DNA of 64,000 nt. Origin: Haliotis rufescens. Its lineage: Eukaryota. Positions 8,346-30,399 of this stretch are shown here, one piece after another. Below the pieces are notes generated by a model. That model did not search any database. It saw only the letters and a program-made list of their open reading frames with translations, and had not been told where the DNA came from. How positions within the stretch are numbered: position 1 is the first letter of the stretch; the number at the start of each line of letters is the position of its first letter. The DNA is taken from positions 21,452,001 through 21,516,000 of the forward strand of contig NW_025963780.1 in assembly GCF_023055435.1 (NCBI RefSeq), in the 5' to 3' direction. Made by a program: the position numbers and the translations under genes.

Positions 8346-8971
8346 GGGCAGCATGAAGAGTGCGAGCAATCATATGACATATGCAACGCATTTAGTCAAC
8401 GTTTGTCTAAACCTCACTTTGTTTCTTTCGGACCTGGCTGAGCATATATGTACGTTGTACCGGAATCTGTGATCAAAAGTCATTACAACTGCATAGGATT
8501 CTCTGTGGGATTTATGGGTCTCATTCATACTTTAGGGCGGTGTTTGACAGCGGAAATCAGCGAATCTGCGGTCGCTGCTTACATTTACAAAGCGTAAATT
8601 GGACAAGAATCTTTTTAAATTCAAAAAGTCAACGCGAAAGAATAATCATCAACCGAAACGGCTTCCATTGGGCATAAATTGGCAAAACAGTGATCTCATG
8701 TATATAAATAGGTCACTTAAAATCAGTGATGACGCCAAACGGTAAGCATTTCCAAANNNNNNNNNNNNNNNNNNNNNNNNNNNNNNNNNNNNNNNNNNNN
8801 NNNNNNNNNNNNNNNNNNNNNNNNNNNNNNNNNNNNNNNNNNNNNNNNNNNNNNNNNNNNNNNNNNNNNNNNNNNNNNNNNNNNNNNNNNNNNNNNNNNN
8901 NNNNNNNNNNNNNNNNNNNNNNNNNNNNNNNNNNNNNNNNNNNNNNNNNNNNNNNNNNNNNNNNNNNNNNN

Positions 8972-10923
8972 NGTGTGTTACGTGTTGTGTGTTGTGTGAG
9001 TGAACGGGGTATGGGTGTTGGTGTCTGTATGTCTGTGTATGTGTGTGTGTGTTGAGGGATGGTGTGGGTGTTGGTGTCTGTATATTAGTGTGGAGGGAGT
9101 ATGGGTGTTGGTATCTGTTTGTGTGTGTGTGTGTGTGTTTGTGTGTGTTTGTGTGTGTGGAGAGGATGTTGGTGTTAGTGTTTGTCGGTGTCTGATTGTT
9201 TGTATGTGTGTGTGTATGTGTGAGTGTTTGTATTTGTGTGTGTGGTGGGGCATGTGTTGGTGTCTGTGTGTGTACCTGCGTGTTTGTATGTGTGTGAAGG
9301 GTAAGTGTGGGTGTTGGTTTGGTCTGTGTAATTGTATGTGTGTGTGGAGGACGGTATGGGTGTTGGTGTCTATGTGTGTGTGTGTTTGTATGTGTGTGTG
9401 TGGATGGGGTTATGGGTGTTGGTATCTGTCTATCTCTGTGTCTCTGTGTGTGTTTGTATGTGTGTGTGTGTGGATGGGGTTATGGGTGTTGGTATCTGTC
9501 TGTCTGTGTGTGTGTGTGTGTTTTTGTATGTGTGTCTGTGGACGGGGTATTTGTGTTGGTGTCTGTATGTCCCTGGGTGTTTGTTGGGTGGTGGTGTGGG
9601 TGTTGGTGCCTGTTTGTATGTCTGTGTGTGTGTTGAGGGGTGGTGTGGGTGTTGGTATCTGTCTGTTGGTGTGTCTGTGTGTGGAGGGAGTGTGGGTGTT
9701 GGTGTCTGTCTATGTGTGAGTGTTTGCATGTGCGTGTGGAAGGGAGTATGGGTGTTGGTGTCTGTCGATGTGTGAGTGTTTGTATGTGCGTGTGGAAGGG
9801 AGTATGGGTGTTGGTGTCTGTCGATGTGTGAGTGTTTGTATGTGCGTGTGGAAGGGAGTATGGGTGTTGGTGTCTGTCTATGTGTGAATGTTTGTATGTG
9901 CGTGTGGAGCGGGTGTGGGTGTTGGTGTCTGTCTATGTGTGAGTGTTTGTATGTGCGTGTGGAGGGAGTATGGGTGTTGGTGTCTGTCTATGTGTGAGTG
10001 TTTGTATGTGCGTGTGGAGCGGGTGTGGGAGTTGGTGTCTGTCTATGTGTGATTGTTTTTATGTGCGTGTGGAAGGGAGTATGGGTGTTGGTGTCTGTCG
10101 ATGTGTGGGTGTTTGTATGTGCGTGTGGAAGGGAGTATGGGTGTTGGTGTCTGTCGATGTGTGAGTGTTTGTATGTGCGTGTGGAAGGGAGTATGGGTGT
10201 AGGTGTCTGTCTATGTGTGAGTGTTTGTATGTGCGTGTGGAGCGGGTGTGGGTGTTGGTGTCTGTCTATGTGTGAGTGTTTGTATGTGCGTGTGGAGGGA
10301 GTGTGGGTGTTGGTGTCTGTCTATGTGTGAGTGTTTGTATGTGCGTGTGGAGCGGGTGTGAGTGTTGGTGTCTGTCTATGTGTGAGTGTTTGTATGTGCG
10401 TGTGGAGGGGAGTATGGGTGGTGGTGTCTGTCGATGTGTGAGTGTTTGTATGTGCGTGTGGAAGGGAGTATGGGTGTTGGTGTCTGTCTATGTGTGAGTG
10501 TTTGTATGTGCGTGTGGAAGGGAGTATGGGTGTCGGTGTCTGTCTATGTGTGAGTGTTTGTACGTGTGTGTGGTGGGGAGGAGGATGGGTGCTGGTGTCT
10601 GTCTATGCGTGTGTCTGCGAGTGTGTGTGTGGAGGGGGGTATGGGTGTTGATATCCGTCTGTGTTTGTGTGTGTGTGTCTGTGTGTGTATGTTTGTGTGA
10701 AGGACCGTGTGGCTGTTGGTGTGTGTGTGTGTCTGTATGTATGTGTCGAGGGGGTATGGTTGTGTGGTATATGTCTGTGTGTGGCTCCTTGTGTGTATGT
10801 GTGTGTGGAGGGGGTATGGGTGTTGGTGTTTGAGTGTTCGTATGTATGTGTGGAGGCGGTATGGGTGTTGGTGTCTGTGTGTTTGTATGTATGTGTCTGG
10901 AGAGGGGATGTGGGTGTTGGTAT
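8972..10923. repeat. GT-rich minisatellite: 55-56-bp unit in the core, degenerating to (GT)n-like edges; bounded by N gaps
   Basis: Core unit gtgtggaagggagtatgggtgttggtgtctgtcgatgtgtgagtgtttgtatgtgc repeated over about 9680-10560. Confidence 0.95.
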
Positions 10924-11496
10924 NNNNNNNNNNNNNNNNNNNNNNNNNNNNNNNNNNNNNNNNNNNNNNNNNNNNNNNNNNNNNNNNNNNNNNNNNNNNN
11001 NNNNNNNNNNNNNNNNNNNNNNNNNNNNNNNNNNNNNNNNNNNNNNNNNNNNNNAGACAACACGTACAAAGTATATGACACAGGACTAGTTACTGTCAGT
11101 TGCATATGATCATGTATATGAACCGCTATATTGGCTCAATATGTTTTCACAAAACCTATGATCTTACAATTAACGAAAAAAATTGTGGATAGTAAATGTT
11201 GACATATACAGACAGTTAACTACATGTAGGTCATCATTTGCGGCAAGATCAAAGGTACTGAAGGCGAAGAAGAAGAATCTTTATTCTCATGAAGCATTGA
11301 CACACAAATGTTATACATCAAACATAATTATTAAAGTACCCCAAAAAATTATAGCTAGGTGACATAAAATCATCTGTTGAATATTTCGACTGATATGCTG
11401 TTCAAAGGGCGATAAATCTAACTCACTTAAATCATCTACTGATGAGTATGCAACAGACTGTGATACACATCGCATGAACCTAACACTCGTTAGATA

Positions 11497-11630
11497 CCGC
11501 TTCCGTGGTCTAGTGGTAGAGCGTCCGCCCGGAGAGCGGAAGGTCAGGGTTTGATCCCCGGGCGCGTCATACCAAAAGACGTCCAAAGATGGTACTTGAG
11601 GTTACCCCGCCTAGCGCTCGGCTTGAAGGG
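11497..11630 (+). mobile_element. tRNA-derived SINE, family B (3'-truncated)
   Basis: A-box/B-box-like head (gtggtctagtgg...ggtttgatccc) followed by the core gtcataccaaaagacgt..aagatggtac shared with five other copies. Confidence 0.75.
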
Positions 11631-11920
11631 TCCAAAACACGATTTCTTTTATCAGATACAGGATGTTTTAGGCCATTGCTATAAAATATTTTCTCTGTGA
11701 AAGGATGCGCCGATAGATTTTATTTTTCATAGGTCATCCACACATTTTGGCGATTAAGTCCAGGGAAAGTGAATCTTTCCCAAAAAATTTTCCCGGAATA
11801 TGTTTTGATTCAAAAACCTCCCAGAAGCCCGCCTCACCGGTTCGTAATGCCGTTCGGACACCATGACATGTAACAAACCAGGAAAGAAACTGTGACCACC
11901 CGATATACTATGACATATGA

Positions 11921-12090
11921 GTGAGTGAGTGAGTGAGTATTATTTTACGCCGCTTTTAGCAATATTCCAGCAATATCACGGCGGGGGACACCAGAAATGG
12001 GCTTCACACATTGTACCCATGTCGGGAATCGAACCCGGGTCTTCGGCGTGACGATCCAACGCTTTAACCACTAGGCTACCCGACCGCCCC
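11921..12090 (-). mobile_element. Full-length tRNA(Asp)-derived SINE with 13-bp TSD
   Basis: TSD ctatgacatatga at 11908-11920 and 12091-12103; tRNA-Asp-like head (GTC loop, ggttcgattcc B-box); (ACTC)n tail. Confidence 0.9.
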
Positions 12091-12179
12091 CTATGACATA
12101 TGACAAGCCAGGAAAGACATTGTGGCCATCCGAGACACCATGAAACATAACAAGCCCAGGTAATACATTGTGACCAGCT

Positions 12180-12397
12180 GAGACACCAGGACGCAGTTTA
12201 ACATGAATACCCCACTCAGACACAGTATACCGACTCCGAGCAGACCAGTCCTTGTTTTAGCCCCTTAATGCCGAGCGCCAGACAGGGTAACAACAAGTAC
12301 CATCTTTTAACGTCTTTTGGTATGACGCGGCCGGGATTCGAACCCCGGACCTTCTGCTCTCCGGGCGGATGCTCTACCACAAGACCACGGAGGCGGT
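12180..12397 (-). mobile_element. tRNA-derived SINE, family B
   Basis: Near-identical to 47640-47862 and 59030-59240. Confidence 0.85.
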
Positions 12398-12419
12398 TGA
12401 AAAGTACTGGAGTCTAAAC

Positions 12420-12800
12420 GTGCCTGCATGCGATATCGGGTCAATGGGATGCGAATGCATGCCCTCCGTGACCGGAGGCTAGCCACGGAGACGACTGTAT
12501 GGGAATTGCTTTGACTCTCAGACATCGACAAGCCTTTTCGACGTTGGCAACAACGTCAATGGCAGCGTGTTCTGTTCAAGGACGAAAGTCGATTCTCACT
12601 CCACCATGCTGATGGAAGAATCCGTGGTTACAAAAGCAGAGGCGAGCGACTGGCCCCTGTGTGCATCCTAGAGTACCACCCACATGGACGTGGTTGTTAT
12701 ATTGTATGGGGAGGAATTTGCGATGATAAAAAAAACCAGCCTAGTGGTCATAAATGGTAACCTAAATGTACAAAGATATGGAGGCGAGGTTCTACATGCT
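12420..12800 (+). mobile_element. Degraded Tc1/mariner transposase fragment
   Basis: Frameshifted translation gives VLFKDESRF...DGRIR...RGERLAP, VWGGI and LVVINGNLNVQRY, typical of the Tc1 DDE region. Confidence 0.7.
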
Positions 12801-12839
12801 TATTTAAATGTACGTCAGCTTACTTGTGGAATTATGTGT

Positions 12840-13191
12840 ATGTTAGGTATATGTGTAAATATTGTTTTAATTTTGAGTATGTGGGCAAAATGTTGTATTT
12901 GGCGGGAAATTGTCTCCCTTGGCATGACAACATGTGTCATCACTAATGGATAAATTTGTAACAATTTACAATGTGTTATGAGATACCATAGTATCAATAT
13001 ATTCTTTATATAATCTACTTGTGATATGTATGTATTACTGATATAATGTATGGCCGTTTCTATTCTGTTGTAATTGTTTCAGGGCCAAATTTTCCATTTC
13101 TCCATTTCGTTATTTCTACGTTTATTCATCTGAATAAAACCGATCACAACCTCACAACCAGTCATGTCTTGGTGTCTAACCAGCTGTAACA
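12840..13191 (+). mobile_element. Displaced 3' portion of the Gypsy LTR (ends TGTAACA, followed by TSD GTAA)
   Basis: Highly similar to 15716-16057 of the 5' LTR; followed by gtaa and the satellite in register. Confidence 0.9.
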
Positions 13192-15075
13192 GTAAGGCCC
13201 GATGGGAGAGAAGTGAGGGAAAGTAAGACACAAGGGGAGAGCTGCAAGGAGAAGTAAGGCCCGATGGGCGGGAAGTGAGGGAAAGTAAGACACAAGGGGA
13301 GAGCGGCAAGGAGAAGTAAGGCCCGATGGGCGAGAAGTGAGGGAAAGTAAGACACAAGGGGAGAGCGGCAAGGAGAAGTAAGGCCCGATGAGAGAGAAGT
13401 GAGGGAAAGTAAGACACAAGGGGAGTACGGCAAGGAGAAGTAAGGCCCGATGGGCGAGAAGTGAGGGAAAGTAAGACACAAGGGGAGAGCGGCAAGGAGA
13501 AGTAAGGCCCGATGAGAGAGAAGTGAGGGAAAGTAAGACACAAGGGGAGAGCGGCAAGGAGAAGTAAGGCCCGATGGGCCAGAAGTGAGGGAAAGTAAGA
13601 CACAAGGGGAGAGCGGCAAGGAGAAGTAAGGCCCGATGGGCGAGAAGTGAGGGAAAGTAAGACACAAGGGGAGAGCGGCAAGGAGAAGTAAGGCCCGATG
13701 GGCGAGAAGTGAGGGAAAGTAAGACACAAGGGTAGAGCGGCAAGGAGAAGTAAGGCCCGATCGGAGAGAAGTGAGGGAAAGTAAGACACAAGGGGAGTAC
13801 GGCAAGGAGAAGTAAGGCCCGATGGGCGAGAAGTGAGGGAAAGTAAGACACAAGGGGAGAGCGGCAAGGAGAAGTAAGGCCCGATGGGAGAGAAGTGAGG
13901 GAAAGTAAGACACAAGGGGAGAGCTGCAAGGAGAAGTAAGGCCCGATGGGCGGGAAGTGAGGGAAAGTAAGACACAAGGGGAGAGCGGCAAGGAGAAGTA
14001 AGGCCCGATGGGCGAGAAGTGAGGGAAAGTAAGACACAAGGGGAGAGCGGCAAGGAGAAGTAAGGCCCGATGAGAGAGAAGTGAGGGAAAGTAAGACACA
14101 AGGGGAGTACGGCAAGGAGAAGTAAGGCCCGATGGGCGAGAAGTGAGGGAAAGTAAGACACAAGGGGAGAGCGGCAAGGAGAAGTAAGGCCCGATGAGAG
14201 AGAAGTGAGGGAAAGTAAGACACAAGGGGAGAGCGGCAAGGAGAAGTAAGGCCCGATGGGCCAGAAGTGAGGGAAAGTAAGACACAAGGGGAGAGCGGCA
14301 AGGAGAAGTAAGGCCCGATGGGCGAGAAGTGAGGGAAAGTAAGACACAAGGGGAGAGCGGCAAGGAGAAGTAAGGCCCGATGGGCGAGAAGTGAGGGAAA
14401 GTAAGACACAAGGGTAGAGCGGCAAGGAGAAGTAAGGCCCGATCGGAGAGAAGTGAGGGAAAGTAAGACACAAGGGGAGTACGGCAAGGAGAAGTAAGGC
14501 CCGATGGGCGAGAAGTGAGGGAAAGTAAGACACAAGGGGAGAGCGGCAAGGAGAAGTAAGGCCCGATGGGCGAGAAGTGAGGGAAAGTAAGACACAAGGG
14601 GAGAGCGGCAAGGAGAAGTAAGGCCCGATGGGCGAGAAGTGAGGGAAAGTAAGACACAAGGGGAGAGCGGCAAGGAGAAGTAAGGCCCGATGGGCGAGAA
14701 GTGAGGGAAAGTAAGACACAAGGGGAGAGCGGCAAGGAGAAGTAAGGCCCGATGGGCGAGAAGTGAGGGAAAGTAAGACACAAGGGGAGAGCGGCAAGGA
14801 GAAGTAAGGCCCGATGGGAGAGAATTGAGGGAAAGTCAGACACAAGGGGAGAGCGGCAAGGAGAAGTAAGGCCCGATGAAAGGGAAGTGAGGGAAAGTAA
14901 GACACAAGGGGAGAGCGGCAAGGAGAAGTGAGGGAAAGTAAGACACAAGGGGATAGCGGCAAGGAGAAGTAAGCCCCGATGGGTGAGAAGTGAGGGAAAG
15001 TAAGACACAAGGGGAGAGTGGCAAGGAGAAGTAAGGAAAAGTAAAACACATGGGGAGAGCGGCAAGGAGAAGTAA
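13192..15075. repeat. 62-bp purine-rich satellite (dimer of related 31-mers) with a 682-bp higher-order repeat
   Basis: Unit gtaaggcccgatgggcgagaagtgagggaaagtaagacacaaggggagagcggcaaggagaa; diagnostic variants recur at +682 (gctgc at 13241 and 13923). Confidence 0.97.
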
Positions 15076-16057
15076 TGTAGGCGTGACATTTTGAGGGTAT
15101 TTTAATGTCATAATTCGGTTCCTTTGTATATATCTATTTTACAATGATTGGATGTAACATGGTGTTTTATATTTTATGGTTTAAAGGTAAAATAAGAATA
15201 AAAATAATGTATAAGTCATAAAAAGGTTGTTAAAAATATTGATGGTTGGTGGCAGTATTCTAATGTTTGTGGTTTTAAGTGAATGTCAATTAGATTGACA
15301 TTTGGTTTTGTTTATCTCTTAGTTCCTATGAATTTCATTTATCTGAATGGTTATGACATCAGAGTTATGTAAAGTATAATGCTGGATCAAGGGTATTGCC
15401 TCATTTTGGATCCAGGATGAAAGTTGTTTATCACCTGACCCTAATTCTTAACTTCTCATCTGTGAATTTAAAAAACTAAGAAAGTCTTCTTTGCACCAAT
15501 CTAACCAACTCACAATCACAGCACCGCACAGGCAACAGCAAGGTGGCAGTAGGATTTAACAGGTCAGTTAAATACTTAAACACTAAATTATGTTTAGATT
15601 TATTATGTCTTTTACATGTTCATTTAGTATGTTGTTTCATAGAAATTAATGTCATTTTGTATCTTGTTAAAAATGATAAGGTTAAAAAAAGGTATTTAAG
15701 TATCTAAAGTATCTGATGTTAGGTATATGTGTAAATATTGTTTTAATTTTGAGTATGTGGGCAAAATGTTGTATTTGGCGGGAAATTGTCTCCCTTGGCA
15801 TGACAACATGTGTCATCACTAATGGATAAACTTGTAACAATTTACAATGTGTTATGAGATCAATATATTCTTTATATAAGCTACTTGTGATATGTATGTA
15901 TAACTGATATAATGTATGGCCGTTTCTATTCTGTTGTAATTGTTTCAGGGCCAAATTTTCCATTTCTCCATTTCGTCATTTCTACGTTTATTCATCTGAA
16001 TAAAACCGATCACAACCCCACAGCGAGTCATGTCTTGGCGTCTAACCAGCTGTAACA
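15076..16057 (+). repeat. Gypsy 5' LTR (982 bp)
   Basis: Starts TGTAGG and ends TAACA; matches 27999-28648 plus 12840-13191. Confidence 0.93.
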
Positions 16058-16059
16058 TT

Positions 16060-16077
16060 TGGAGCCCCCAGTGAGGA
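16060..16077 (+). promoter_or_regulatory. Primer-binding site, probably tRNA-Thr
   Basis: TGGAGCCCCCAGTGAGGA lies 2 nt after the LTR; TGG pairs with tRNA CCA; from memory it resembles the complement of tRNA-Thr(TGT) 3' ends. Confidence 0.75.
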
Positions 16078-17333
16078 ATTATTCAGATAGGATCTTCACT
16101 TGATGGTGACTTGAAGTTGATCTGATGTTGACCGGAAGTTGATCTGATGTTGACCGGATGTTGATCTGATGGTGACCGGAAGTTGACTTGTTTACATCCT
16201 GTTATCTGCCTTGCTGTGAGTTACATGTCTTTGCCTTGTGACATCTATTTTGCCTGTTTTAATTAGCTGCTGTGATAATGCTTCTTTGCTGAACTCACCA
16301 TGAACACTGGATCTATAGATTGTTTATACAATCATGTGAACATTTTACAGCATTGAACTTTTAATGTACAGCAGGGATCCAGTGAACATTACAGATTGAC
16401 ATGGTGTATTGGACATTTACTGAATCTGTGATATTTTATATTGTCTGACTTTTATATATACTTACGTGTATCTGAACACTGTGATATTTGTGTATATACG
16501 GGTTGCGAAACAAAAATGAATTTAGTAGTTGCCCGGATTGACCTCTTATTGCCCATTTTATAGGCTCATTTTTTGCCTTTGTTATGTGTGGTATGCATAT
16601 GGTTACATTGTGACATGTGTGATTGAATGATGAATTTGGTCACTAGTACATTGTATGTAGTCCCTGTGTTGTGTTAGGTCTTAGTCAGTTATTTAGTTAC
16701 AGATAGGTACACTTTAATTACCCTTTAATTAGTATATCAAAACAAACTTGGTTTTATATTAACTAAATTACCTAAATAGTACTTAGTCAATTTAATTATT
16801 TATTCAATCTCAACTAGGTAATAATACAGTTTATGTTCAGACTACCTCAGATGAAAAGATTAACAAACAATGATGTTTTGTGGGATATAATGGGCAGAGT
16901 GTGGATGATGCAGTCGGGGGCGATAAGCAAGGTCCTACCGCGGACTAGAAATCGCATACAGACCCTATCGCGGGTCAAGTTGTCCCTCCACCGTGCTTGG
17001 CAGACAGGACCCACAGCAAAGATACTGTCACTCCCCCCGCGGAAACAGCGGGCAGAAGAATTTGGGCTCCCGCTGTAATTAGCAGGCAACCAGAGTATCA
17101 TACACCCACCAGCATGGTGTTAAACCAAATCCCCCGACTGCACCATGCCAAACAGCGGGGTGCAAAATGTATAAATACACTATGCACACCGCTGACATCC
17201 ACACATTATATTAAATTTGGATTAAATTATGATGTGGAAGGGAGATGGGGAGTGGATAAGGGACTGGGAAGGAAAAGAAAATTATGCGCCTCCCCCCAAA
17301 GTGAAGTTATACATACTTACCCGAACGGTACCT

Positions 17334-17866
17334 TTACTCATCACTAAACAATGTCCTGCGTACATTTGATTTAAAATGGGCCATGCCCGACCGGTTTAAA
17401 TGAACTCCCCGAGGAGTATAAAATGGAGCATCATGTTTGATCTGAGGGTGGGTATACCTTAGACCCCCCTCTTCCCTGATCACTCCCGCAATCCGCCTAT
17501 TAAGCGATTTTCTTTTCAGTTCAATCCTTTTAACATGGCTGGCTCCTCGCCAGGTTTGTCGAGGCAACATGTCAGACCATACCAATTTGGTATTCGGGAG
17601 TTTAAGCTGAGCGTATGTTATGTCCAGATACATGTTGTCGTAAAGTTCCTTTGTCCCCTTTGTACACAGATCGTTTGATCCAAGGTGGATAACCAGAAAC
17701 TTCGGCTGGGGATGGCGGGCAACAAGTGTATCCACTGCCTTGCGGAATTCCCCCCACTTCATTCCGCCCTTTGCATGCCAGCGGGTACCCGTCAGTAGGG
17801 AGTCCGATGTAGTGGCCAGATGGTCGTGGAATCGGACCATATAACTGGACCCGATACACCATACAT
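17334..17866 (-). CDS. SGNH/GDSL-like hydrolase of Ngaro copy 1 (probably a spliced exon)
   Basis: Blocks VWCIGSS, KGG, HLGSND and RGVHL; the catalytic GSS lies upstream of the first in-frame Met (17840), directly after a tttcag acceptor. Confidence 0.8.
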
Positions 17867-17972
17867 CTGAAACTTAAAACACACTAGCAGCATCTTTGTT
17901 ATAATAACATCTGCTTTAAACTTACCTATTAATTTATTGATGGTATTTATTGATGGTATTTATTGATGGTAT

Positions 17973-18007
<35 letters not shown>

Positions 18008-18120
18008 TTCTGTATATTATTAGAGTTAGTGAAAAAGTGCGTATTATCCCGTTACCCCCGTGGAAACGCAACAGGCAGGAACGGGTGGTGAGTCTGTGTT
18101 TGTTTCTGCTAGGTATACTG

Positions 18121-19050
18121 CTAAGTGGTGAGTTGAGTAATGCGGATATATTTGCTGTAACAGTTTGATTTCCAACGCCCATATTCCTGAATCTGCTTGG
18201 AACTAACCCGATTAATTGCTGCTGTGGTAGCCGCTCCAATGCGAAAAGAGTGTGACGAAAACAAATGAAGATTGAGGTGTGGTAAGGAAAATGACAGGGC
18301 CTTTCTTTACATTGACTGAAATTGGAATCTAGTTAAAGGACGTCCATCAAAATGGACGAACATATGACCGTGCACTGGTGGTCTGATGGAAAGAAACTGT
18401 TGCATTGCTCTGACAGGACACAGTCTAGAGTGAGGGATAGCTGTTATTTTTATTTGCACACCTCTGCCGCCCTGATCCGTTTTGGATGAGCGTAAACATA
18501 TCGTTATGTGACTTATATCTGCTGCCACATGAATATCAGACAAAAGACACGCCCTATGCGAGAAATCCTTGCCTGACCCTGCCACCAGCTCACTGATTCT
18601 AAAAAATCCAAAAAATGCAAGCAGGTATGCAGCTGTGAAAAGAGACGTTTCGTAAGTTGAAGCACAAACTACCGGTAATGCTGTCACAATAACAGACAAT
18701 AAGTCAACTGTAATTGGGAGTCGAGTGTCAGCCTTCTGTTTCTGTCTGACAAATCCAATCAAGGCTTTCTGAATAAGAAAATGGGATGTTAGGTCATGCA
18801 TACCATGTACCTTTTGCCATGTTGTTAATGCTGATATATACGACTTTGCCGTGCGAGGAGATTTTCCTGTTAAGGAGAGATGAGCGATAAAATGCATAAG
18901 GTGATCAACCGGGGCGGGCCAAATGTGTGGCAGGCTGAAAGAGATGCGGAAAACATTAAATGCCTTTTGTGCAGACTCATACAGGTTCCATGTGTTGAGT
19001 GCTAGAGAAGACTGCACTAGACGTTGCACCTCTGTCGTCAGATCTGCCAT
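18121..19050 (-). CDS. Tyrosine recombinase of Ngaro copy 1, one in-frame stop (18307-18309)
   Basis: FFGFFRISEL and SKTDQ, then past the TAA in the same frame [14 protein letters not shown] and KYIR (R-K-H-R-W-Y catalytic set). Confidence 0.9.
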
Positions 19051-20960
19051 ATGTCCTGTGGTATGTGTGCTGGTATCTCGTCTGCCCGCGGTGCTGCTTC
19101 TTTGAACCTGGACCACTGAAATCTCGAAAGTGCATCAGCTATAACGTTTGCATGCGTAGGAATATACGATGCTTTGAACAAGATATTATGTTGTAAACAG
19201 AGGAGTATCAGGCGCCTAAGCAACGACATAACTCGTGGTGGTTTAGCTGTTTGTTTATTGATAATTGCTACCACTGCTTGGTTGTCACAAACAAACAACA
19301 CTCGCTTGTTTCGTAGATGTCTACCCCACAGTCTTACTGCCAGTACAATTGGAAAAAGCTCTAGCATAGTGATGTCCTTAGTCCATCCATTCTGCACCCA
19401 CTCGTTAGGCCATCTGCCATTGGCCCATCTACCCATGAAAAAGGCTCCGAAACCATGGTTACCTGACGCGTCGGTAAACAAATGTGTATCCGATGAATTG
19501 ATCCACTCTGAATCTATAAATGCAGTAGTGCCATTGTGGTTTTGAAGAAATTGCCGCCATAAATTGAGGTCCTCGCGTATGCCTTGTGTTATCCTTATTC
19601 TGTGGTGAGGTTTTGACCCTCCGCGCTGTGCGTCAATGAGGCGTCTTAAAAAGGCGCGACCAATCGGAATTGCCCTACATACAAAGTTAAGTTTCCCCAC
19701 CAAGGACTGCAAGTAGTGTAATGTTGTTTTCTTCTTAAAAGGTGATAAAAGAGTATCTATTTCCTGAGTAAGCGGCACTACCTTATCCATCGGTATGCTA
19801 ATTTGCGCTTTGACTGTGTCTATTGTGATACCCAGGAACGTCATGTTTGTTGTAGGTATAACCGTTTTGTCCTTTGCGACGGGAACACCCATGTTTTGTA
19901 ATAACTCCAGGGAGGACTCGAGAGTTTGTTGACACTTATTAGAGGCTAGTGCTGCCAATGCAAAATCATCCAAATAGTGTTGTATGTTATCATTTTTGGT
20001 GTATTTCCTGAGTACCCACTGCAAAAATGTGCTAAATTTTTCAAATGTTGCACATGATATGGAACAGCCAAATGGAAGACATTTGTCAAAGTAGATATTA
20101 TGTTTGAATTGTATTCCCAGAAATTTAAAGTCATCTGGTCGTATAGGTATGAGGCGAAATGCAGACTTAATATCAAATTTTGCCATGTATGCACCCTTGC
20201 CTAATCCTTGTATCGCGGATAGCACCTGGTCAAAGCTAGTGCACTTGACTGTTGACACCTCGTGAGATATGTAGTCGTTTACAGACTCTCCCTCAGGGTA
20301 TGACAGATGGTGAATAAGTCTGAACGTTTGCTGAACTTGTTGATTATTGTGATTTGACTTCTTCGGAACGAGACCGATTGGAGAAACTATCATATCTTGA
20401 AATGGTGGTGCTGTAAATGGACCTGCAATTCTACCTAGATCAACTTCTTTTTGTAGCATTGTTGCCACCATGTTTGGATGTTGTTGGGCGGATTTTAAAT
20501 TGTAAGCCATTCTAGGACCCGGTGGACCCGTGTACTGTAGTGGAAAACCTTGAGAAAAACCTTCCGATAAAAACATAGCATCTGATGCGTAGAAGGGGGT
20601 GTAAATACTGAGCCAATGTGACAATACACGCATACTAATGGGTGTTGGTGCTAGGCCTTGAGTTGGTATTGTTTGCGTTGGGTTTTGTTTGAGTACGGGG
20701 GGTTGTAACGCCCCCTTTTTGACGAAAGCATGTGTGTGCGTCGTGTGCAGTGCTGTCACATGTGATGCATTTGTGTGCATATCGGCAGAAAGACCTTGTA
20801 CATCCGAATTTGTTAAAATCCCAGCAAAACTTTGGGATGCTACCTGTATTTTCGCTACCCGCGTTGAGATTGCTGCGGTTGGTGGTAGTGGTGTTGTTTG
20901 TGACGCGCGCGTGTGCCGCTTGTTGATTTGGAAGCATATGTTGTAACCATAAATGGCCAT
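19038..20960 (-). CDS. Reverse transcriptase-RNase H of Ngaro copy 1 (intact ORF; true start uncertain)
   Basis: [35 protein letters not shown]; RNase H FTDASG, LELFPI, CDNQAVV, ADALSR. Confidence 0.95.
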   Translation of the reverse strand: MAIYGYNICFQINKRHTRASQTTPLPPTAAISTRVAKIQVASQSFAGILTNSDVQGLSADMHTNASHVTALHTTHTHAFVKKGALQPPVLKQNPTQTIPTQGLAPTPISMRVLSHWLSIYTPFYASDAMFLSEGFSQGFPLQYTGPPGPRMAYNLKSAQQHPNMVATMLQKEVDLGRIAGPFTAPPFQDMIVSPIGLVPKKSNHNNQQVQQTFRLIHHLSYPEGESVNDYISHEVSTVKCTSFDQVLSAIQGLGKGAYMAKFDIKSAFRLIPIRPDDFKFLGIQFKHNIYFDKCLPFGCSISCATFEKFSTFLQWVLRKYTKNDNIQHYLDDFALAALASNKCQQTLESSLELLQNMGVPVAKDKTVIPTTNMTFLGITIDTVKAQISIPMDKVVPLTQEIDTLLSPFKKKTTLHYLQSLVGKLNFVCRAIPIGRAFLRRLIDAQRGGSKPHHRIRITQGIREDLNLWRQFLQNHNGTTAFIDSEWINSSDTHLFTDASGNHGFGAFFMGRWANGRWPNEWVQNGWTKDITMLELFPIVLAVRLWGRHLRNKRVLFVCDNQAVVAIINKQTAKPPRVMSLLRRLILLCLQHNILFKASYIPTHANVIADALSRFQWSRFKEAAPRADEIPAHIPQDIWQI

Positions 20961-21744
20961 CTATTGCCCACCAGGAGCGAGACGGGTCGCGCTGCATCCT
21001 TTGTCTGAAACTACGGTCATATTGCAACCATGAATCTCCGCCGAACCTAATAGCAGCTCCCCTGATTGTTTCGATGTAGGTAAGCAGATCCTGTATCTTA
21101 TCCGGGTGTTTTTCTATGTATACACTCATGTAGACGTTAAACGCCGATGTCCATGCGCCAATGCCTAATGGACGCGTTTGTTGTTGTTTGGGTTTAAAAA
21201 TAATCTGACCTGTGGCGTCGAGTGCCAATGTAAATGCCGACATCTCTTGGGGTGTCTGATTTTGGGCTGCTATGAGTTGTTTTAGCTCAATGAATTCGCC
21301 GTTGTGTATTTTTTCCCGTAGTTGTTGGGAAACATGTGATCCGATGTGTTCCGCTCTGACGTTTAACTGTAGACAGGGTGTATTCGTCGCGGGTATGCCA
21401 AACATGGTTGGATCGTTTAAATTCATAGTTGCGAAAGGATTGAGTGTTTGTGTTTGTTGTTGGGACGGATGCGTGTTATGTGCGTTTTCGCGTGCTAATG
21501 TACTAATGTTTATGTGCCCTTCATTGTTTGAAGACCTATCCCCAGTCGGCATCTGCGTGTCCCCGTTTGTGAGCGTGCTGTTTGCAAGCATTGCCGTATT
21601 TGTAGGAAGCACTGTGGTAGCCGAGTTTGCATTATGCAAAATATTGCTCGAATTAATACAAGAGGTGAAATGCAAACCGCCGGACGCGTTGTGTTGTGTT
21701 GTTAGAATGACTTGACAGTTGGGGAGTAAAAGTAGTGACGTCAC
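20635..21744 (-). CDS. Gag-like ORF1 of Ngaro copy 1 (5' end possibly deleted)
   Basis: KIHNGEFIELKQL, WTSAFNVY, WLQYDRSFR, and a C-terminal Cys/His cluster CWDFNKFGC..C..HKC..C..H....C; homologous to 52219-53307. Confidence 0.85.
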   Translation of the reverse strand: MTSLLLLPNCQVILTTQHNASGGLHFTSCINSSNILHNANSATTVLPTNTAMLANSTLTNGDTQMPTGDRSSNNEGHINISTLARENAHNTHPSQQQTQTLNPFATMNLNDPTMFGIPATNTPCLQLNVRAEHIGSHVSQQLREKIHNGEFIELKQLIAAQNQTPQEMSAFTLALDATGQIIFKPKQQQTRPLGIGAWTSAFNVYMSVYIEKHPDKIQDLLTYIETIRGAAIRFGGDSWLQYDRSFRQRMQRDPSRSWWAIDGHLWLQHMLPNQQAAHARVTNNTTTTNRSNLNAGSENTGSIPKFCWDFNKFGCTRSFCRYAHKCITCDSTAHDAHTCFRQKGGVTTPRTQTKPNANNTNSRPSTNTH

Positions 21745-22199
21745 GAGACCACGTGTAGTGACGTCATGGGAGAAATGACGTATGTTGCCATGGGGAGTAT
21801 TTTTGCGGGTCTTGTGAGAGGAGAATGTTTGTAAACAAATGGTGGAAAATGATAAATGGGAATAGTTACTAGTATTGGTTATGCGGAGCTGACCATAAAC
21901 CGATTTAGCTAAATAATGCTAAATCATATTAGTTTCAAGGCACCCAATATTATACTTGTTGTTGCCCGTGTACTCTTCTTGTTTAGGCACTCATCACTCA
22001 ACTAACCCTTTAGTTGGTACAGTACCTCTACTAAGTTTTAAGTTAACTCCCCTGCAGCATTTGTTCTGCTTTGTAGACGGCTTTTAGTGGTGTTTGGATT
22101 AGTGTACTGGTACTTAGTTTTGTAGTTGGGCAGTTAGGTCTATAAGCCAAGGAGGGATTTGCAGGTATCAAAGAGGAGGAGCAACCAGGGTCTGATATC

Positions 22200-23430
22200 A
22201 TGCCAGCCTTAGAGTCAGATGTAGGCGATCTTAGTCTCACTGGACTTAGTGATACTTTGAAGCAGATGGGTGTAGTACCTGTGGAAGATAGCCCTGAGCA
22301 TTTTCAGGATTGGATGGTTTCCTATTTGCAGTCGGTAGGGTAGTTGCCCGGTGGTATCTTGGCTGATTCTGAAGGTACATGGGGTAACAAAGGCTCTGTG
22401 GTTACTCAGGCTTTTCAATCAGATGCTAAACCATTAGAGAGTAAAGGTCCTCAGTTTACTCCTGTTACTCAGACAGACCTTAATAAAACTGTAGTCACCT
22501 TAAGTCAGACTCCTAAGTTGTCATCTTTCTTTGGTGAAGCTAGTAAGGGTGAGGCTTCTTATGATTTATGGCGCTATGAGGTAGAGTGTCTCTTGGCTGA
22601 GAGTGCTTATCCTAAGCATGTCATATTTGAGGCTGTTAGGCGCTCTCTGAAGGGTAAAGCTGGTAAAGCTGCTTCACTTTTAGGTCCGCAGTCTACCCTT
22701 GATTCCGTGTTAGCTAAACTTACAAGTGTTTATGGCAGCTGTGAGGAAAGTGAATCCCTGATTGCAAGGTTTTATAGTGCCAAACAGACGGCAGAAGAAG
22801 ATGTTTCTTCTTGGGGTTGCAGACTTGAAGATCTATATGCTAAGGCTAGACAGAGTAGTAAGTCATCACCTAGTGAGACTAACCAAGCCCTCAGGAGTGT
22901 TTTCTGGCAATGTCTTAAACCAAATTTGAAGGATGTATCTGGCCACAAGTACGATGCTATTGAGGACTTTGATAAGTTGCGTGTAGCGATTAGAAGGATT
23001 GAATTTGAGTTGAATCAGAGGAAGCCCCTAGAGTCTTCAAAGAAGCCAATTCCCTCTAAAATGGCTGCTAAATCTGACAGTGATTACCAGGAATTGAAGG
23101 GTATGGTTCAACAATTAACAGCAGAGTTTGGTGCCATTAAAAGGCAATTAGCTGACATTCCCACTCTCACTCCCACTCCCACGCCATCTCCTTCAGGATC
23201 TAGAGGAAGAGGCCGATCTGATCGTGGCTCATTTTCTATTCGTGGCAGATCTAATATGTCGCATTGGAACAATAATGGACGGGGTCAGTTCAGCGCTAGA
23301 GGTCATCCTACATATGGTCCTTCACACTTACCTTATCAGGGAGCTGTTCCTCCAGATGGTAGGCAGGGTATTGTCTGTTAGAAATGTGGACAGATAGGTC
23401 ATTTGTGGCGTGGATGTAGGGTTATCATGG
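22200..23430 (+). pseudogene. Gypsy gag (PNMA-like capsid plus CCHC knuckle), with nonsense mutations
   Basis: ATG 22200 is in frame with ORF 22344-23381, with a stop at 22341; the zinc knuckle C*KCGQIGHLWRGC is interrupted by TAG at 23379. Confidence 0.85.
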
Positions 23431-23437
23431 ACAACAA

Positions 23438-26400
23438 ATGGTCTTTAAACATGCACGGGCCCATGGAGACAGGCGATTCATGGGCCAATCCACAAGCAAA
23501 CCAGAGACAACGCCTACCACAACTCCAGAAGGATTGATCGGGAAAGCAAATGAAGCCAGTGTCACAGTGGGAGGTAAAGTATGCACAGCTTTACTTGATA
23601 CAGGTTCCACAGTGTCTACTGTTAGTGAATCATTCTACAGGCATCAATTATCTCATCTTCCAATGCATCAACTTGACCGTATTTTGGACATAGAGTGCGC
23701 AGATGGTGGAACATTGCCATACCTAGGGTATATTGAGAGTGAGTTGTTAGCCCCAGGCCTTGAATCAATGGACACTTTGCCTTGTTTACTACTAGTTGTT
23801 GCAGACAGTAGGTATAACTTGTCAGTGCCAATCTTGCTGGGTACTAATATCTTGTCATCTTTGATGGAAAGATGTAAGGCAACAGTGGGTACTAGATTTC
23901 TTCAGAAAACATCACTTCATACCCCATGGTATTTGACATTTAGGAATATGGTCATTAGTGAGAAGGAGTTAGCGAAGAATGATTGGAGGTTAGGACTTGT
24001 CAAGAATATTGAAGACAGGAACATAGTTATTCCACCAAATCCACAAGTCATTATCCAGGGTTATGTTGACAAGGAAATCAGTTATCCTCAAGCTCTTGGT
24101 ACACTACAGTCATGTCAGAGTTCAACTATTCCATCAGACATAGATGTTTCTCCTTCACTTATGTTGTACAAGTATAGGAAGCAGGATCCAATCCAGGTAC
24201 ACTTGTCAAATGTTACCACTCGTACTGTTGTTATTCCACCCAAGCTGTACTCTGTGAAATTCAACCAGTATCTGTAGAAGAGTCCAAGCTGAGTCAGTCA
24301 TCCAATACTGAATCTATTTTGAGCCTTATTGATGTCAATGATAAAGGACTTACCCCCGAAGAACTAGATAAAGGTGTTAAACTTATCTCAAAGTACATTG
24401 ATGTCTTTTCAAGTGGGGAATTAGATCTTGGTCATTCAACTGCAGTACAACTCCTTTTAAACAAAGGCATCGATGTATTCCCCCAGCCATGTTTCAAGAG
24501 GTAAAAGATCATCTTAGACAGTTGCTAGCATGTGGAGTTATACGTAGATCACATAGTCCTTGGGCTTCTAACATTGTCCTGTGTAGGAAGAAGAATGGAA
24601 AACTTAGAATGTGCGTGGACTTCAGACAACTAAACAATTCCACTATTAAGGATAGAGGAAATTTTAGATTGTCTAGCTGGCAGTAAGTTTTACTCTAAGT
24701 TGGACATGAAGTCTGGATATTACCAAGTCGAACTTGCAGAAGAACATAAGGAGCGCACTGCTTTTACAGTTGGCCCTTTAGGTTTCTTTGAGTATAATAG
24801 GCTTCCGTTTGGACTTTGCGACAGTCCGGCGACATTTCAGGGTCTCATGCAAGATTGTCTTGGAGATTTGCCTTTATCAATCAGTGTGATATACATTGAT
24901 GATCTTATCATATTTGCTGATAGCTATGAGGAACACTTCGAACGTCTCACCAAAGTTTTTGACCGCCTGCGCCAATGCAACTGAAAACTGGCTCCAGATA
25001 AGTGTGAATTCTTCAAAGAGAAAGTTGCCTATGTTGGACACGTCATTTCCAAGGACGGAGTTGAACCAGATCCTACAAAAGTAGAAGCCATCAGAAATTG
25101 ACCACGGCCTACCAACCCTTTTGATGTAAGGAAGTTTTTAGGTTTTGCAGGATACTACAGACGGTTTGTAGAGAATTTCTCCAAGATATCTAAGCCTCTA
25201 TCCCAAATAATGCCTAGCCCGAACGACAAGAAAGGAAAATCTACAGTGAACTAGTTTTGGGGAGATCCTCAGGAAGCAGCATTCCAGGAGTTGAAGGATA
25301 GACTTTCATCGCCGCCAGTACTAGGTTACTGTGATTACTCAATCCCATTTGAACTCCATACCGATGCCAGTCAATGTGGCCTAGGTGCTGTACTATACCA
25401 GAATCAAGGCGGGAAGCAGAGAGTCATTGCCTATGCCAGCCGAGGATTGTCAAAGTCAGAGCAGAACTACTCAGCCCACAAACTGGAATTTCTTGCATTG
25501 AAATGGTCAATCACTGAGAAGTTCCATGATTACCTCTTTGGCAATCAATTCACTGCATATACAGATAACAACCCACTGACATATATTCTGACTACCGCAA
25601 AGTTCGACGCAACTGGCCACAGATGGCTAGCTGCCTTGTCAGCTTACAATTTTGATGTCAAATACCGACCTGGAAAATCGAATATTGATGCAGATGTGCT
25701 GTCGCGGATTCCAGGAGATCATACAACAGAGCCTGCAGATAATCAGATTTCCTCAGAATCTGTCAAGGCTATCTGTCAGTCTGTTTCTGCACCCAATTAT
25801 GTTGAGTGTTTAAGCATGTGCTCGGAGTTGGTAGATGTTCTGATACAGGCCATGACCTGAAGAGCTTGTCTCCAAAGGATTGAAGACGTGAACAGTCTTG
25901 TGATCCGACACTTGCAGATGTCATCAAATGGGTCAGAACAGGACAAAAGCCAAGACATGATTACATGCAATCCAGTGAATTTACATCCCTTTCTCGCAGA
26001 TTTGACAACCTTAAACTCAAGCAAGGTGTGTTATACAGAGTGACTACCATGGATGATGAACTTGCAGAACAGTTGGTACTTCCTTATCATCTCCGTGCTC
26101 AAGTTCTTAAGAGTCTTCATGACGATATTGGTCATTTAGGACGGGATAGAACATTGGCTTTGGTAAGAGAGCGATTCTACTGGCCTGGAATGGCAAGTCA
26201 AGTTGAGAAGTGGGTGAAGGAATGCCAGAGATGTTTACGCCGAAAGTCAGCAACAAATACCAGAGCTCCCTTCGTGAATATCGAGACCACATATCCATTG
26301 GAGTTAGTTGCTATGGACTTTATTACCTTGGAACCTTCGAAGGGGAACTATCAGCATATCCTTGTAATTACTGATCACTTCACTTAGTATTCTCAGGCTG

Positions 26401-27959
26401 TTCCAACAAGAAATATGACAGCCCGTACGACAGCAGAAGCATTTCTTAACCACTTCGTAGTCCATTATGGTTTACCAGCCCGAATCCATTCAGACCAAGG
26501 TGCAAACTTCGAAAGTCGTCTGATTGAGGAGCTGTGTACAATTACCGGAATGAAGAAGTCGAGGACAACACCGTACCATCCTATGGGTAACGGCCAGACA
26601 GAGCGCTTCAACAGAACACTTTTGAACATGCTTGGCACACTTGAACCTGATCAAAAGAAGGATTGGAAGATGCATGTTTCTCCTCTAGTTTATGCCTACA
26701 ACTGTACCAAACATGAAACTACTGGTCATTCTCCCTTTTATTTAATGTTTGGACGTCATCCAAGATTGCCGATAGACCTTGCATTTGGAATTGACAGAGA
26801 CCATGCCAACCAGTCGTTACAATCATACACAAAGTCTCTGCGTGACAGACTAAAGAAATCATATGAATTGGCCTCTAACATCACCAGGAAGTCTAAAAGA
26901 AAGCAAAAGCAGAACTATGATCAGCGACCAAGAGGAGAAGCGGTCCATGTTGGTGATAGAGTACTGGTAAAAGCTCTTGCCTTCGAAGGTAAACATAAAC
27001 TAGCAGACCGGTGGGAGGATGATGCATATATTGTCAAAGGACACCCAAACCCCACTATACCCGAGTTTGTAGTGGAACCAGAGAATGGAGATGGTCGAAT
27101 AAGAACTTTGCATGGGAATCATCTCCTCCATATTGGAAGTGTTGCTACGGAAACCGTAAGACCTAAACCAAAACCAAGAAAGAGAACGAGGATTTAAACT
27201 GTGACAAACAAACCAGATGACATACTGGAACAGGATGATGACCATGACAAGGTTATTTTGTCAGTTTCATCTACTCCTCATATTGATTCTGTCTCTTCAG
27301 CCAGTGATACATCCACAGGTAACATGGTTGGTGCTGAAGTTCAACTGACGGAAATGAAGCAACAGGATGAAGGTGATTTAATCCTTGTTGAAGATGTTGT
27401 ACAAGATCGAACTGAGGTAGAAACTGAATCAGTGGAAGTTGACCGTATTGGTGATTCTCCATCAGAATCAGAGTCCACATCGGTCACTAAAGATCAAGAT
27501 GTCATGGATGTTAAGGTCGTTTCGGATCTTGCTAATATCACCCATGTCTCCGATGCTGCCAATGGCATTGCAAAGTATGGTGCTCATGTCACAGATCTTG
27601 CCACTGTCCCGGATGTTGCTGACATAGACCACGTCAGTGATGTTGCAAGTGTCACGAACGTCATGCCAGAAAATCTTGAAACAGAGACTAAAAGTAGTCC
27701 CGAGACATCTGGACTGAACGACGCAAGGACTCGAGCTCCTGTGCAACCTATTCCGCCAGGTCGGCACAGACGATCAGACAGAGTTACAAGGAAACCTGCA
27801 TGGCAAACTAGTGGTGAGTTTGTAATGTCACAAATAGGTCGACCACCAGACTGGCTGGAGAAAGCAAGATTTCTAGAACATCTGGCAACCAGTGGAACTT
27901 TTGACACATTGCCTTCTAAGGTATCAGATGTTCTATTATCCGTCATCAAAGATAAATGA
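23438..27959 (+). pseudogene. Gypsy pol (protease-RT-RNaseH-integrase plus acidic tail), fragmented
   Basis: LLDTGS; SPWASNIV, RMCVDFR, LPFGL, YIDD; HTDAS, TDNNPL; HDDIGH..CQRC, MDF, SDQG, ERFNRTL; multiple stops and frameshifts. Confidence 0.93.
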
Positions 27960-27986
27960 TAGATGACGGGGACTTCATTTATTGAT

Positions 27987-27996
27987 AGGGGGGTAG
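27987..27996 (+). promoter_or_regulatory. Polypurine tract
   Basis: aggggggtag lies immediately before the 3' LTR. Confidence 0.75.
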
Positions 27997-27998
27997 TG

Positions 27999-28648
27999 CG
28001 TAGCCGTGACATTTTGAGGGTATTTTAATGTCATAATTCGGTTCCTTTGTATATATCTATTTTACAATGGTTGGATGTAACATGGTGTTTTATATTTTAT
28101 GGTTTAAAGGTAAAATAAGAATAAAAATAATGTATAAGTCATAAAATGGTTGTAACAAATATTGATGGTTGGTGGCAGTATTCTAATGTTTGTGGTTTTA
28201 AGTGAATGTCAATTAGATTGACATTTGGTTTTGTTTATCTCTTAGTTCCTATGAATTTCATTTATCTGAATGGTTATGACATCAGAGTTATGTAAAGTAT
28301 AATGCTGGATCAAGAGTATTGCCTCATTCTGGATCCAGGATGAAAGTTGTTTATCACCTGACCCTAATTCTTAACTTCTCATTGGCTAATGTAAAAAACT
28401 AAGATAGTCTTCTTTGCACCAATCTAACCAACTCACAATCACAGCACCGCACAGGCAACAGCAAGGTGGCAGTAGGATTTAACAGGTCAGTTAAATACTT
28501 AAACACTAAATTATGTTTAGATTTATTATGTCTTTTACATGTTCATTAAGTATGTTGTTTCTTAGAAATTAATGTCATTTTGTATCTTGTTAAAAATGAT
28601 AAGGTTAAAAAAGGTATTTAATTATAAGTATCTAAAGTACCCGATGTT
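27999..28648 (+). repeat. Gypsy 3' LTR, 5' two-thirds only
   Basis: Matches 15076-15720 with scattered substitutions; stops at ATGTT. Confidence 0.92.
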
Positions 28649-28655
28649 TTGTCAA

Positions 28656-29122
28656 CGGCAAGGAGAAGTAAGGCCCGATGGGAGAGAAGTGAGGGAAAGT
28701 AAGAGACAAGGGGAGAGCGGCAAGGAGAAGTAAGGCCCGATGGGCGAGAAGTGAGGGAAAGTAAGACACAAAGGGAGAGCGGCAAGGAGAAGTAAGGCCC
28801 GATGGGCGAGAAGTGAGGGAAAGTAAGACACAAGGGGAGAGCGGCAAGGAGAAGTAAGGCCCGATGGGCGAGAAGTGAGGGAAAGTAAGAGACAAGGGGA
28901 GAGCGGCAAGGAGAAGTAAGGCCCGATGGGAGAGAAGTGTTGGAAAGTAAGACACAAGGGGAGAGCGGCAAGGAGAAGTAAGGCCCGATGAGAGAGAAGT
29001 GAGGGAAAGTAAGACACAAGGGGAGAGCGGCAAGGAGAAGTAAGGCCCGATGGGCGAGAAGTGAGGGAAAGAAAGACACAAGGGGAGAGCGGCAAGGAGA
29101 AGTAAGGCCCGATCGGAGAGAG
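28656..29122. repeat. 62-bp satellite (same family as 13192-15075)
   Basis: Same consensus unit. Confidence 0.95.
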
Positions 29123-29129
29123 CCTTTCG

Positions 29130-29832
29130 AAATTAAGACCCAAGGCGGCAGAGGCCAGGGAAAGTAAAACCCAAGGGGAGAAGGACTAGGGAAAGTAAGA
29201 CCAAAGGGGAGAAGGACTAGGGAAAGTAAAACCCAAGGGGAGAAGGAGTAGGGAAAGTAAGACCCAAGGGGAGAAGGACTAGGGAAAGTAAGACCAAAGG
29301 GGAGAAGGACTAGGGAAAGTAAGACCCAAGGGGAGAAGGAGTAGGGAAAGTAAGACCCAAGGGGAGAAGGACTAGGGAAAGTAAGACTCAAGGGGAGAAG
29401 GACAAGGGAAAGTAAGACCAAAGGGGAGAAGGACTAGGGAAAGTAAGACCCAAGGGGAGAAGGAGTAGGGAAAGTAAGACCCAAGGGGAGAAGGACTAGG
29501 GAAAGTAAGACCCAAGGGGAGAAGGACTAGGGAAAGTAAGACCCAAGGGGAGAAGGAGTAGGGAAAGTAAGACCCAAGGGGAGAAGGACTAGGGAAAGTA
29601 AGACTCAAGGGGAGAAGGACAAGGGAAAGTAAAACCCAAGGGGAGAAGGACAAGGGAAAGTAAAACCCAAGGGGAGAAGGACTAGGGAAAGTAAAACCCA
29701 AGGGGAGAAGGACAAGGGAAAGTAAAACCCAAGGGGAGAAGGAGTAGGGAAAGTAAAACCCAAGGGGAGAAGGACTAGGGAAAGTAAGACCCAAGGGGAG
29801 AAGGACTAGGGAAAGTAAGACCCAAGGGGAGA
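29130..29832. repeat. 31-bp satellite monomer array
   Basis: Unit aagtaagacccaaggggagaaggactaggga. Confidence 0.95.
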
Positions 29833-30399
29833 AAATAAGTGGCACCAATAGCAGACATCCAATTGCAGCAATGGAGGGGAACAAAACAGTACTAATTGTC
29901 AAAAGGCTGAACAGTTTCAAAAAGTTACTTCAGACACTGTATGTGGATGTATTCAGACAACAAACAAACATTTGAAAATAATTGTCTTACTCCTTACTTG
30001 TGATGAATTAAAGCAGGCAATATCCAATTAAAAATACATCTCACCTCTGTAATGAAATTTTAGACATATGCCATCCTCTGGTGGTTGGTTACCTGCCAAC
30101 GTCTGAATGTTGGTCTTCAGGAACATAACAAAATCCATGGAAACATGTGTTGGTTATTCCTGTCCCCAGACTTCATACAGACAGATACTTATAACATCTA
30201 CCTGTGGAAATTCATGGACAAAATAGTCATATGCCGGCTGAAACTTCTTGAAAGCAGTATGTTCTAAAACACAACCAGGTGTTAAGAAAAGACGATAGAA
30301 TAGAACAACAAGTATGTTTGCAATCTGAAGTACTTTGAAATACATTGGCAGTCAGGAACGTATGTTAAGTGTATTCCTTTACATTGAAAGGCGTAACAT

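Follow-up and report, generated by a model that had tools for sequence, protein, structure and literature searches.

We analysed 64 000 base pairs (bp) of the Haliotis rufescens genome (NCBI RefSeq assembly GCF_023055435.1, contig NW_025963780.1, positions 21,452,001–21,516,000 of the forward strand; hereafter the window, whose own numbering is used throughout), in which a broken Gypsy retrotransposon lies within a 62-bp minisatellite, and an end piece of a long terminal repeat (LTR) is found upstream of its 5' LTR. The order in the assembly is LTR end, GTAA, satellite, GTAA, element, LTR stub and satellite, and is thus permuted relative to that of a normal element. It turns out that the upstream LTR fragment does not begin at position 12840, where it starts to match the 5' LTR; to within a few bases, the left junction lies at 12791/12792, and at least 30 bp of LTR is missing between this and the right junction, which is probably 28655/28656. 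A left breakpoint at the pentamer ATGTT, where the two displaced LTR pieces seem to fit together, is unsupported, and this five-base fit is most likely the scar of a small deletion. We tentatively favour a lossy local block swap after one insertion as the origin of the permuted order; no free circle is needed for it.

Three pieces of one LTR and the array around them

The features on which the argument turns are as follows.

12400–12791, + strand: left flank, a decayed Tc1/mariner-like transposase remnant, cut at the junction (frames; weak match to Sleeping Beauty transposase, E 0.024)
12792–12839, + strand: LTR DNA of the family, 48 bp, the terminal part of 'segment c', which the 5' LTR lacks (repeat-depth contigs start at 12792–12797 and run past 12840)
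12840–13191, + strand: LTR end piece (LTR positions 641–982, terminal CA)
13192–13195, + strand: GTAA, the right-hand copy of the 4-bp target duplication (in phase with the satellite; contigs 13122–13195 of runs X1 and X7, 0 differences)
13192–14803, + strand: regular 62-bp minisatellite, 26 units
14804–15075, + strand: irregular satellite units, adjoining the 5' LTR and ending in GTAA (15072–15075)
15076–16057, + strand: 5' LTR, 982 bp, TG..CA ends
22146–27959, + strand: broken Gypsy gag, protease, reverse transcriptase (RT), RNase H (RH) and integrase region (PNMA, Asp_protease_2 below its cut-off, RVT_1, RT_RNaseH, Integrase_H2C2, rve)
27987–27996, + strand: polypurine tract, from the sequence
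27997–28648, + strand: first part of the 3' LTR (LTR positions 2–645 from 28000), ending in ATGTT (28644–28648)
28649–28655, + strand: seven non-satellite bases between ATGTT and the right array (predicted start of segment c, or filler)
28656–29833, + strand: right array, ~7.5 units of the 62-mer and then a related 31-bp array

Comparison of the window with itself showed one LTR in three pieces (15076–16057, 28000–28648 and 12840–13191). Using the window's own 5' LTR (982 bp) as the reference, we aligned the right piece to LTR positions 2–645 with 17 mismatches in 643 bases, and the left piece to positions 641–982 with eight in 342, the latter count excluding a gapped nine-base extension (12830–12838) that carries two more mismatches. 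Divergence from the 5' LTR is 2.6% for the right piece and 2.3% for the left (Fisher p 0.83); this similarity passes a check proposed in the first-pass annotation of the window, but is non-discriminating, as the copies of the family are all similar. The left piece has an extra 10 bp relative to the 5' LTR, and the same 10 bp is present, without gaps, in a contig of run X7 at family depth (12843–13087). The 5' LTR in turn lacks 6 bp relative to the 3' LTR.

Both pieces part from the 5' LTR at ATGTT, and the alignment bears out the earlier statement that the 3' LTR stops matching at 28644–28648. A deletion in the 5' LTR would make undeleted pieces part from it at position 645 in the rightward direction and 641 in the leftward, with the microhomology posing as an overlap, whereas the probability that the 3' LTR stopped by chance on the same five of 982 bases is ~0.005. 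Judging from these alignments and from the contigs described below, the 5' LTR has very probably lost the segment between two ATGTT pentamers (segment c), the deletion lying at ATGTT 15716–15720. This one deletion explains both ATGTT stops and the seven odd bases at 28649–28655. A further contig of run X1 that joins at 12841 bears a weak likeness to the closing part of segment c (p 0.012 by shuffling; the two a-ends give 0.30 and 0.056), which we take as a hint only. The seven non-satellite bases after ATGTT had been overlooked in the earlier annotation. For annotation in general, when the reference is a 5' LTR with a deletion, two pieces truncated independently look perfectly complementary, and the microhomology of the deletion is mistaken for an overlap at a cut site.

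The element has the domain order gag, protease, RT, RNase H and integrase, in frames broken by stops and shifts, together with TG..CA LTRs, a primer-binding-like site past the 5' LTR (TGG at 16060), a purine tract ahead of the 3' LTR, and a short target duplication (GTAA at 15072–15075 and 13192–13195) that is in phase with the unit but has its sides swapped. Gypsy elements are the commonest LTR elements in molluscs, according to passages of PMC6238403. The present copy shares with the molluscan Ty3/Gypsy elements of those passages the LTRs, primer site, purine tract, gag-PR-RT-RH-INT order and molluscan integrase relatives, and differs from them in being broken, with unequal, truncated LTRs and a nested element. 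The best integrase relatives are 55–66% identical, and the best-scoring named ones are molluscan; none of 62 integrase-related loci matched the LTR, left piece, satellite or right junction at the DNA level, and a 25-base LTR pattern had no matches in metagenome contigs. Contig depth suggests a family of several to about 20 similar copies. Two other readings of the LTR pieces were rejected: split repeats of a Ngaro element are ruled out by the purine tract and primer site that bound the true LTR, and a stand-alone short LTR at 12841–13191 (5-bp inverted ends) by its left side, which has neither a purine tract or primer site nor a duplication to match.

The GTAA that follows the terminal CA of the upstream piece and the GTAA directly before the 5' LTR, both noted before, occupy the same position of the 62-bp unit, and the satellite continues in register from the former. 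GTAA in phase at both LTR ends favours a single insertion. The array itself contains an exact 682-bp (11-unit) duplication (window 13192–14555; 697 identical bases at period 682), which is either a very recent unequal exchange or an assembly artefact. Substitutions are more frequent in the irregular units than in the regular ones (14 in 272 versus 15 in 930 bases, the duplication being counted once; Fisher p 0.002), and a satellite-to-satellite join is probably hidden near 14800, where the two kinds of unit meet. This change fits a circle-closing junction but fits the rival explanations too. The right array differs from the left one in the order of its unit variants, and the longest exact match between them is 118 bp. 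Within 28656–29833 the 62-bp satellite grades into the related 31-bp array, and two diverged 31-mers appear to make up one 62-mer.

The left junction in public contigs

A run search with 12400–13191 listed 24 runs (19 with part of the stretch; 7 studies), and four runs from four studies were mapped onto 12400–13195: X1, X5 and X7 (organism A), and X16 (organism C, differently labelled). All run data are assembled contigs, not raw reads, and the window may derive from one of these runs. Contig depths are to be taken as approximate. Crossings were counted among the pieces listed, a position being regarded as bridged where a contig has at least 31 letters on each side of it.

The flank is a single-copy contig in all four runs, covering 12448–12826 in X1 (depth 11, 0 differences) and 12448–12821 in X5 (depth 38, 0 differences), X7 (24, 3) and X16 (21, 7). 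Each of these contigs stops 30–35 letters past 12791, which we interpret as a unique path entering a repeat in a graph of 31-letter words. From 12792 onwards the depth is that of a repeat, ~5–16 times single-copy, and contigs identical to the window run straight through 12839/12840: 12792–12872 in X16 (depth 338, against 21 for single-copy sequence, with a variant at 12794–12879 of depth 75), 12792–12863 in X7 (179 against 24) and 12797–12863 in X1 (53 against 11). Repeat depth across 12839/12840, combined with the single-copy stop after 12791, identifies 12792–12839 as family LTR DNA missing from the 5' LTR; this stretch has no match elsewhere in the window. The 31-letter rule is satisfied at 12839/12840 by X16 only (two contigs), X1 and X7 having 24 letters on the right, and at 12791/12792 by X1 only; the remaining crossings at the two positions are 1–7 letters short. 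X5 gave no contig crossing 12839/12840 among the matches listed.

Loose ends before 12792–12794 in X1, X5 and X16 show that other copies continue upstream with a common sequence that is not the flank, and the 30 letters upstream of 12792 taken from family copies have no match in the window (best score 26 of 60). The join of LTR end and GTAA is present in contigs 13122–13195 of X1 and X7 (two of the four runs, among the matches listed), which show 0 differences and run 25 letters further. At 1.5 and 2.2 times the single-copy level, their depths might point to another join of this kind, but are too noisy to be of use. No contig spans the whole of 12400–13195, again among the matches listed. The four runs contain no unpermuted allele, the flank running into LTR DNA in all of them, and neither an empty allele nor a donor copy was found among the loose ends listed. 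The flank in organism C has seven differences in 374 bp (95% interval 0.8–3.8%), similar to the 2.3–2.6% between LTRs, which suggests that the rearrangement probably came soon after insertion, although the error is wide and organism C may be a hybrid or a close relative.

These contigs alter the earlier picture of the locus. The first-pass annotation had the upstream LTR fragment begin at 12840 and run through the terminal CA into GTAA and satellite in register; the latter part stands, but the start does not, because contigs cross 12839/12840 at repeat depth. Joining 28648 to 12840 had been thought to yield a 15.8-kb circle with one complete element, whereas this join drops 12792–12839, 28649–28655 and at least 30 further bases of the family. 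The circle supposedly opened in the LTR with a 5-bp overlap fares no better, for the ATGTT site is inside multi-copy LTR sequence, where it is best read as deletion microhomology, and the real ends do not abut. Because the bases to its left are multi-copy LTR DNA, ATGTT is likewise ruled out as a target duplication or as a recombinase core common to circle and target.

A possible local block swap and its alternatives

In the course of events that we tentatively prefer, one Gypsy copy would have inserted into the 62-bp minisatellite with duplication of GTAA (the phase is observed, and the single origin is our interpretation of it), and its 5' LTR would have lost the segment between the two ATGTT pentamers. 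A later, single local break-and-rejoin would have cut the 3' LTR within segment c, with a loss of at least 30 bp, and the short distal block, consisting of 48 bp of segment c, the LTR end, GTAA and part of the right array, would have been rejoined upstream. The left end of this block would have been attached to the broken Tc1-like remnant by non-homologous or microhomology joining, its right end to the left array by satellite homology, and the 3' LTR stub to what was left of the right array. Throughout, the long element could have stayed in the chromosome, as a swap of X-A-B-Y to X-B-A-Y is symmetrical, so that moving a block of ~2 kb explains the order as well as moving the 14-kb element. That both breakpoints are confined to one short LTR segment, correctly ordered and not overlapping, is also explained by one lossy break, and we count the equal divergences of the LTR pieces and the meeting of regular and irregular units near 14800 in favour of the block swap. 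We infer this mechanism; what the contigs show are the left junction and the LTR-end/GTAA junction only. What we have is probably a local rearrangement, ordinary in appearance, of a dead element. It affects no gene, and the present data do not single out a route.

Several points weigh against a block swap. The start of segment c is unobserved, so that 28649–28655 may be filler, and the near-complementarity of the breakpoints is weak evidence if segment c is long. Contig support stops short of the right junction and of the order of the 1.9-kb array, which contains the exact 682-bp duplication and lies in a scaffold interrupted by three N gaps. No listed contig phases the Tc1 junction with the LTR-end junction; depth is rough, and 31-letter bridging is found in one of the four runs at each left position (X16 at 12839/12840, X1 at 12791/12792). 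Furthermore, a block swap and a transient circle are inseparable by sequence alone.

The nearest competitor, which we consider unlikely but worth serious attention, is a tandem duplication by unequal crossover between the flanking arrays, followed by two deletions, one sparing only the final 400 bp of the 3' LTR in the left copy and the other removing the end of the 3' LTR of the right copy. Unequal exchange or slippage does occur in the array, as the exact 682-bp duplication indicates, a tandem duplicate would show an identical in-phase GTAA and identical divergences, the ends are not flush once ATGTT is discounted, and deleted LTR variants exist in the family (one contig of run X5, with a short side of 28 letters, skips 195 bp of the LTR, window 12933–13129). 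However, three events are needed, and both deletion ends must hit the same short segment of a 13-kb element, for which our own estimate is a few percent if segment c is some hundreds of bases long. The right array also does not repeat the variant order of the left array, an observation of little power.

A circle is less probable still, even in a corrected form in which satellite recombination excises a circle with the element, the circle breaks in segment c with loss of bases, and it re-integrates at a break in the same locus. Such a course predicts the order seen, the in-phase GTAA and a hidden join in the array. Permutations through circular intermediates are documented in passages of PMC7450558 and PMC7188851, the former describing human segmental duplications from circular intermediates with permuted blocks and losses of 1–27 bp, and the latter defining duplications mediated by extrachromosomal circular DNA (eccDNA) against an intact donor and citing cattle and yeast cases. 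The present locus resembles the cases in those passages in its permuted block order and in outer-end junctions without long homology. Those cases, however, have an intact donor and a distant acceptor, whereas our locus has no visible donor, a local event, a loss of at least 30 bp and a closing join that would be hidden in satellite. Since the outer ends are neither flush nor within a loss of up to ~27 bp (the left end is 12792 instead of 12840, and at least 30 bp upstream of it is absent from the window), we have not filed the locus as a circular-intermediate permutation, although it may still have had such an origin. The 5-bp overlap is not the opening point of a circle, and for a circle to re-enter exactly where it had been excised, while the remainder of the Tc1-like remnant and the left edge of the array were lost, takes either coupling or coincidence.

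Excision and reinsertion of tandem-repeat circles has been postulated as a route of satellite spread (passages of PMC5615363), which lends the circle some plausibility. As in the unequal crossing-over and circle excision treated there, the element is flanked on either side by a homogeneous array in which several units have recently been duplicated; the subject of those passages is the spread of satellite units and not an embedded retrotransposon. In a literature search whose coverage is thin for subscription papers, no title dealt with this locus or with LTR elements permuted through satellites. Were the circle route true, a germ-line circle arising by recombination between minisatellite units would have carried the whole 13-kb Gypsy element and its passenger, broken in the LTR and re-entered its own locus soon after insertion, to give a product common to two related organisms. 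We regard this as improbable. If proven, it would be a natural case, traced to the nucleotide, in which satellite recombination moved a retrotransposon in the germ line of an invertebrate, something frequently postulated but seldom resolved, and would amount to a satellite-driven, integrase-independent way of moving dead elements. The earlier proposal of a rearranged single insertion keeps its footing in so far as the swapped order is real in the assembly and fits, but its argument from the opening of an eccDNA does not hold. Nor does anything show the claimed mobilisation of a dead element with nested Ngaro cargo, as the move of a short block explains the order equally.

We give little credence to a pair of separate insertions in which two copies of this family entered the array at one and the same unit position and were later truncated. 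In a family of several to about 20 similar copies, equal divergence is no proof of single origin; but two random insertions would share phase and orientation in ~1 in 124 cases (our own arithmetic, assuming no target preference, none being shown), and both truncations would have to land in segment c. It is just as doubtful that the junction sequences are real while their order is an assembly join across satellite, or that the right junction is an artefact. The scaffold is N-gapped and lies beside other arrays, an exact 682-bp repeat is present, the block 15076–28655 is bounded by satellite at both ends, and no listed contig crosses the whole of 12400–13195. Against this, the unique left junction recurs in all four runs from four studies, including the differently labelled organism (7 differences in 374 bp), the LTR-end/GTAA join is found in two of the four among the matches listed, and repeat collapse could not invent non-repeat junctions. 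Finally, transposition by reversed transposon ends, as in maize, was set aside because neither flank shows a terminal inverted repeat by eye.

The nested passenger and neighbouring repeats

The Gypsy element contains a passenger, related to a second copy elsewhere in the window.

16900–21950 (ends approximate), − strand: nested Ngaro-like retroelement (tyrosine-recombinase order) without terminal repeats (RVT_1, E 1.5e-17; Lipase_GDSL_2, E 2.3e-4; homology to the copy at 51750–58069)
51750–58069, + strand: second Ngaro-like element, with split direct repeats

On the minus strand, the nested copy has gag-like and RT/RH frames and candidate recombinase-like and SGNH-hydrolase-like ones, in the same order as in the Ngaro-like tyrosine-recombinase retrotransposons of passages in PMC9210276, but it differs from them in having no split direct repeats (A1..B1 A2 B2), the only self-match within 16058–22300 being a 22-bp tandem repeat. 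The RVT_1 match lies in a frame of 640 amino acids, and the Lipase_GDSL_2 match of the SGNH hydrolase frame (22 bits) is below the cut-off of 32.9. No Pfam or NCBIfam match to a tyrosine recombinase was obtained in the nested copy; its frame in the recombinase position is 40% identical, over 149 amino acids, to the matching frame of the second copy. The nested copy thus appears to be a truncated passenger, which resembles Ngaro only by its frames and by its homology to the copy at 51750–58069. In that second copy, 51750–51978 matches 56873–57119, and 56423–56877 matches 57417–58069 in two parts, with extra sequence between the second A and second B repeats. The RT frame of the nested element (19041–20960, − strand) is open for 640 codons, whereas the pol region of the host Gypsy element is broken in many places, and the passenger may be younger than its host.

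No Pfam or NCBIfam match was found for the Tc1/mariner-like remnant at 12400–12791. Farther to the left, three N gaps of unequal size (5349–5935, 8757–8972 and 10924–11054), two of which flank a GT-rich array (8973–10921), mark the assembly as scaffolded. Positions 1–155 and 3143–3297 form a direct repeat of 155 bp or longer (it meets the start of the window), 98.7% identical, around a 3-kb array of a 47-bp unit; it is either a long duplication made at insertion of the array or an assembly overlap. Short dispersed repeats belonging to two families are clustered at 11496–12397 and recur at 45159, 47639, 48642, 58128 and 59029; they may be similar to short interspersed nuclear elements.

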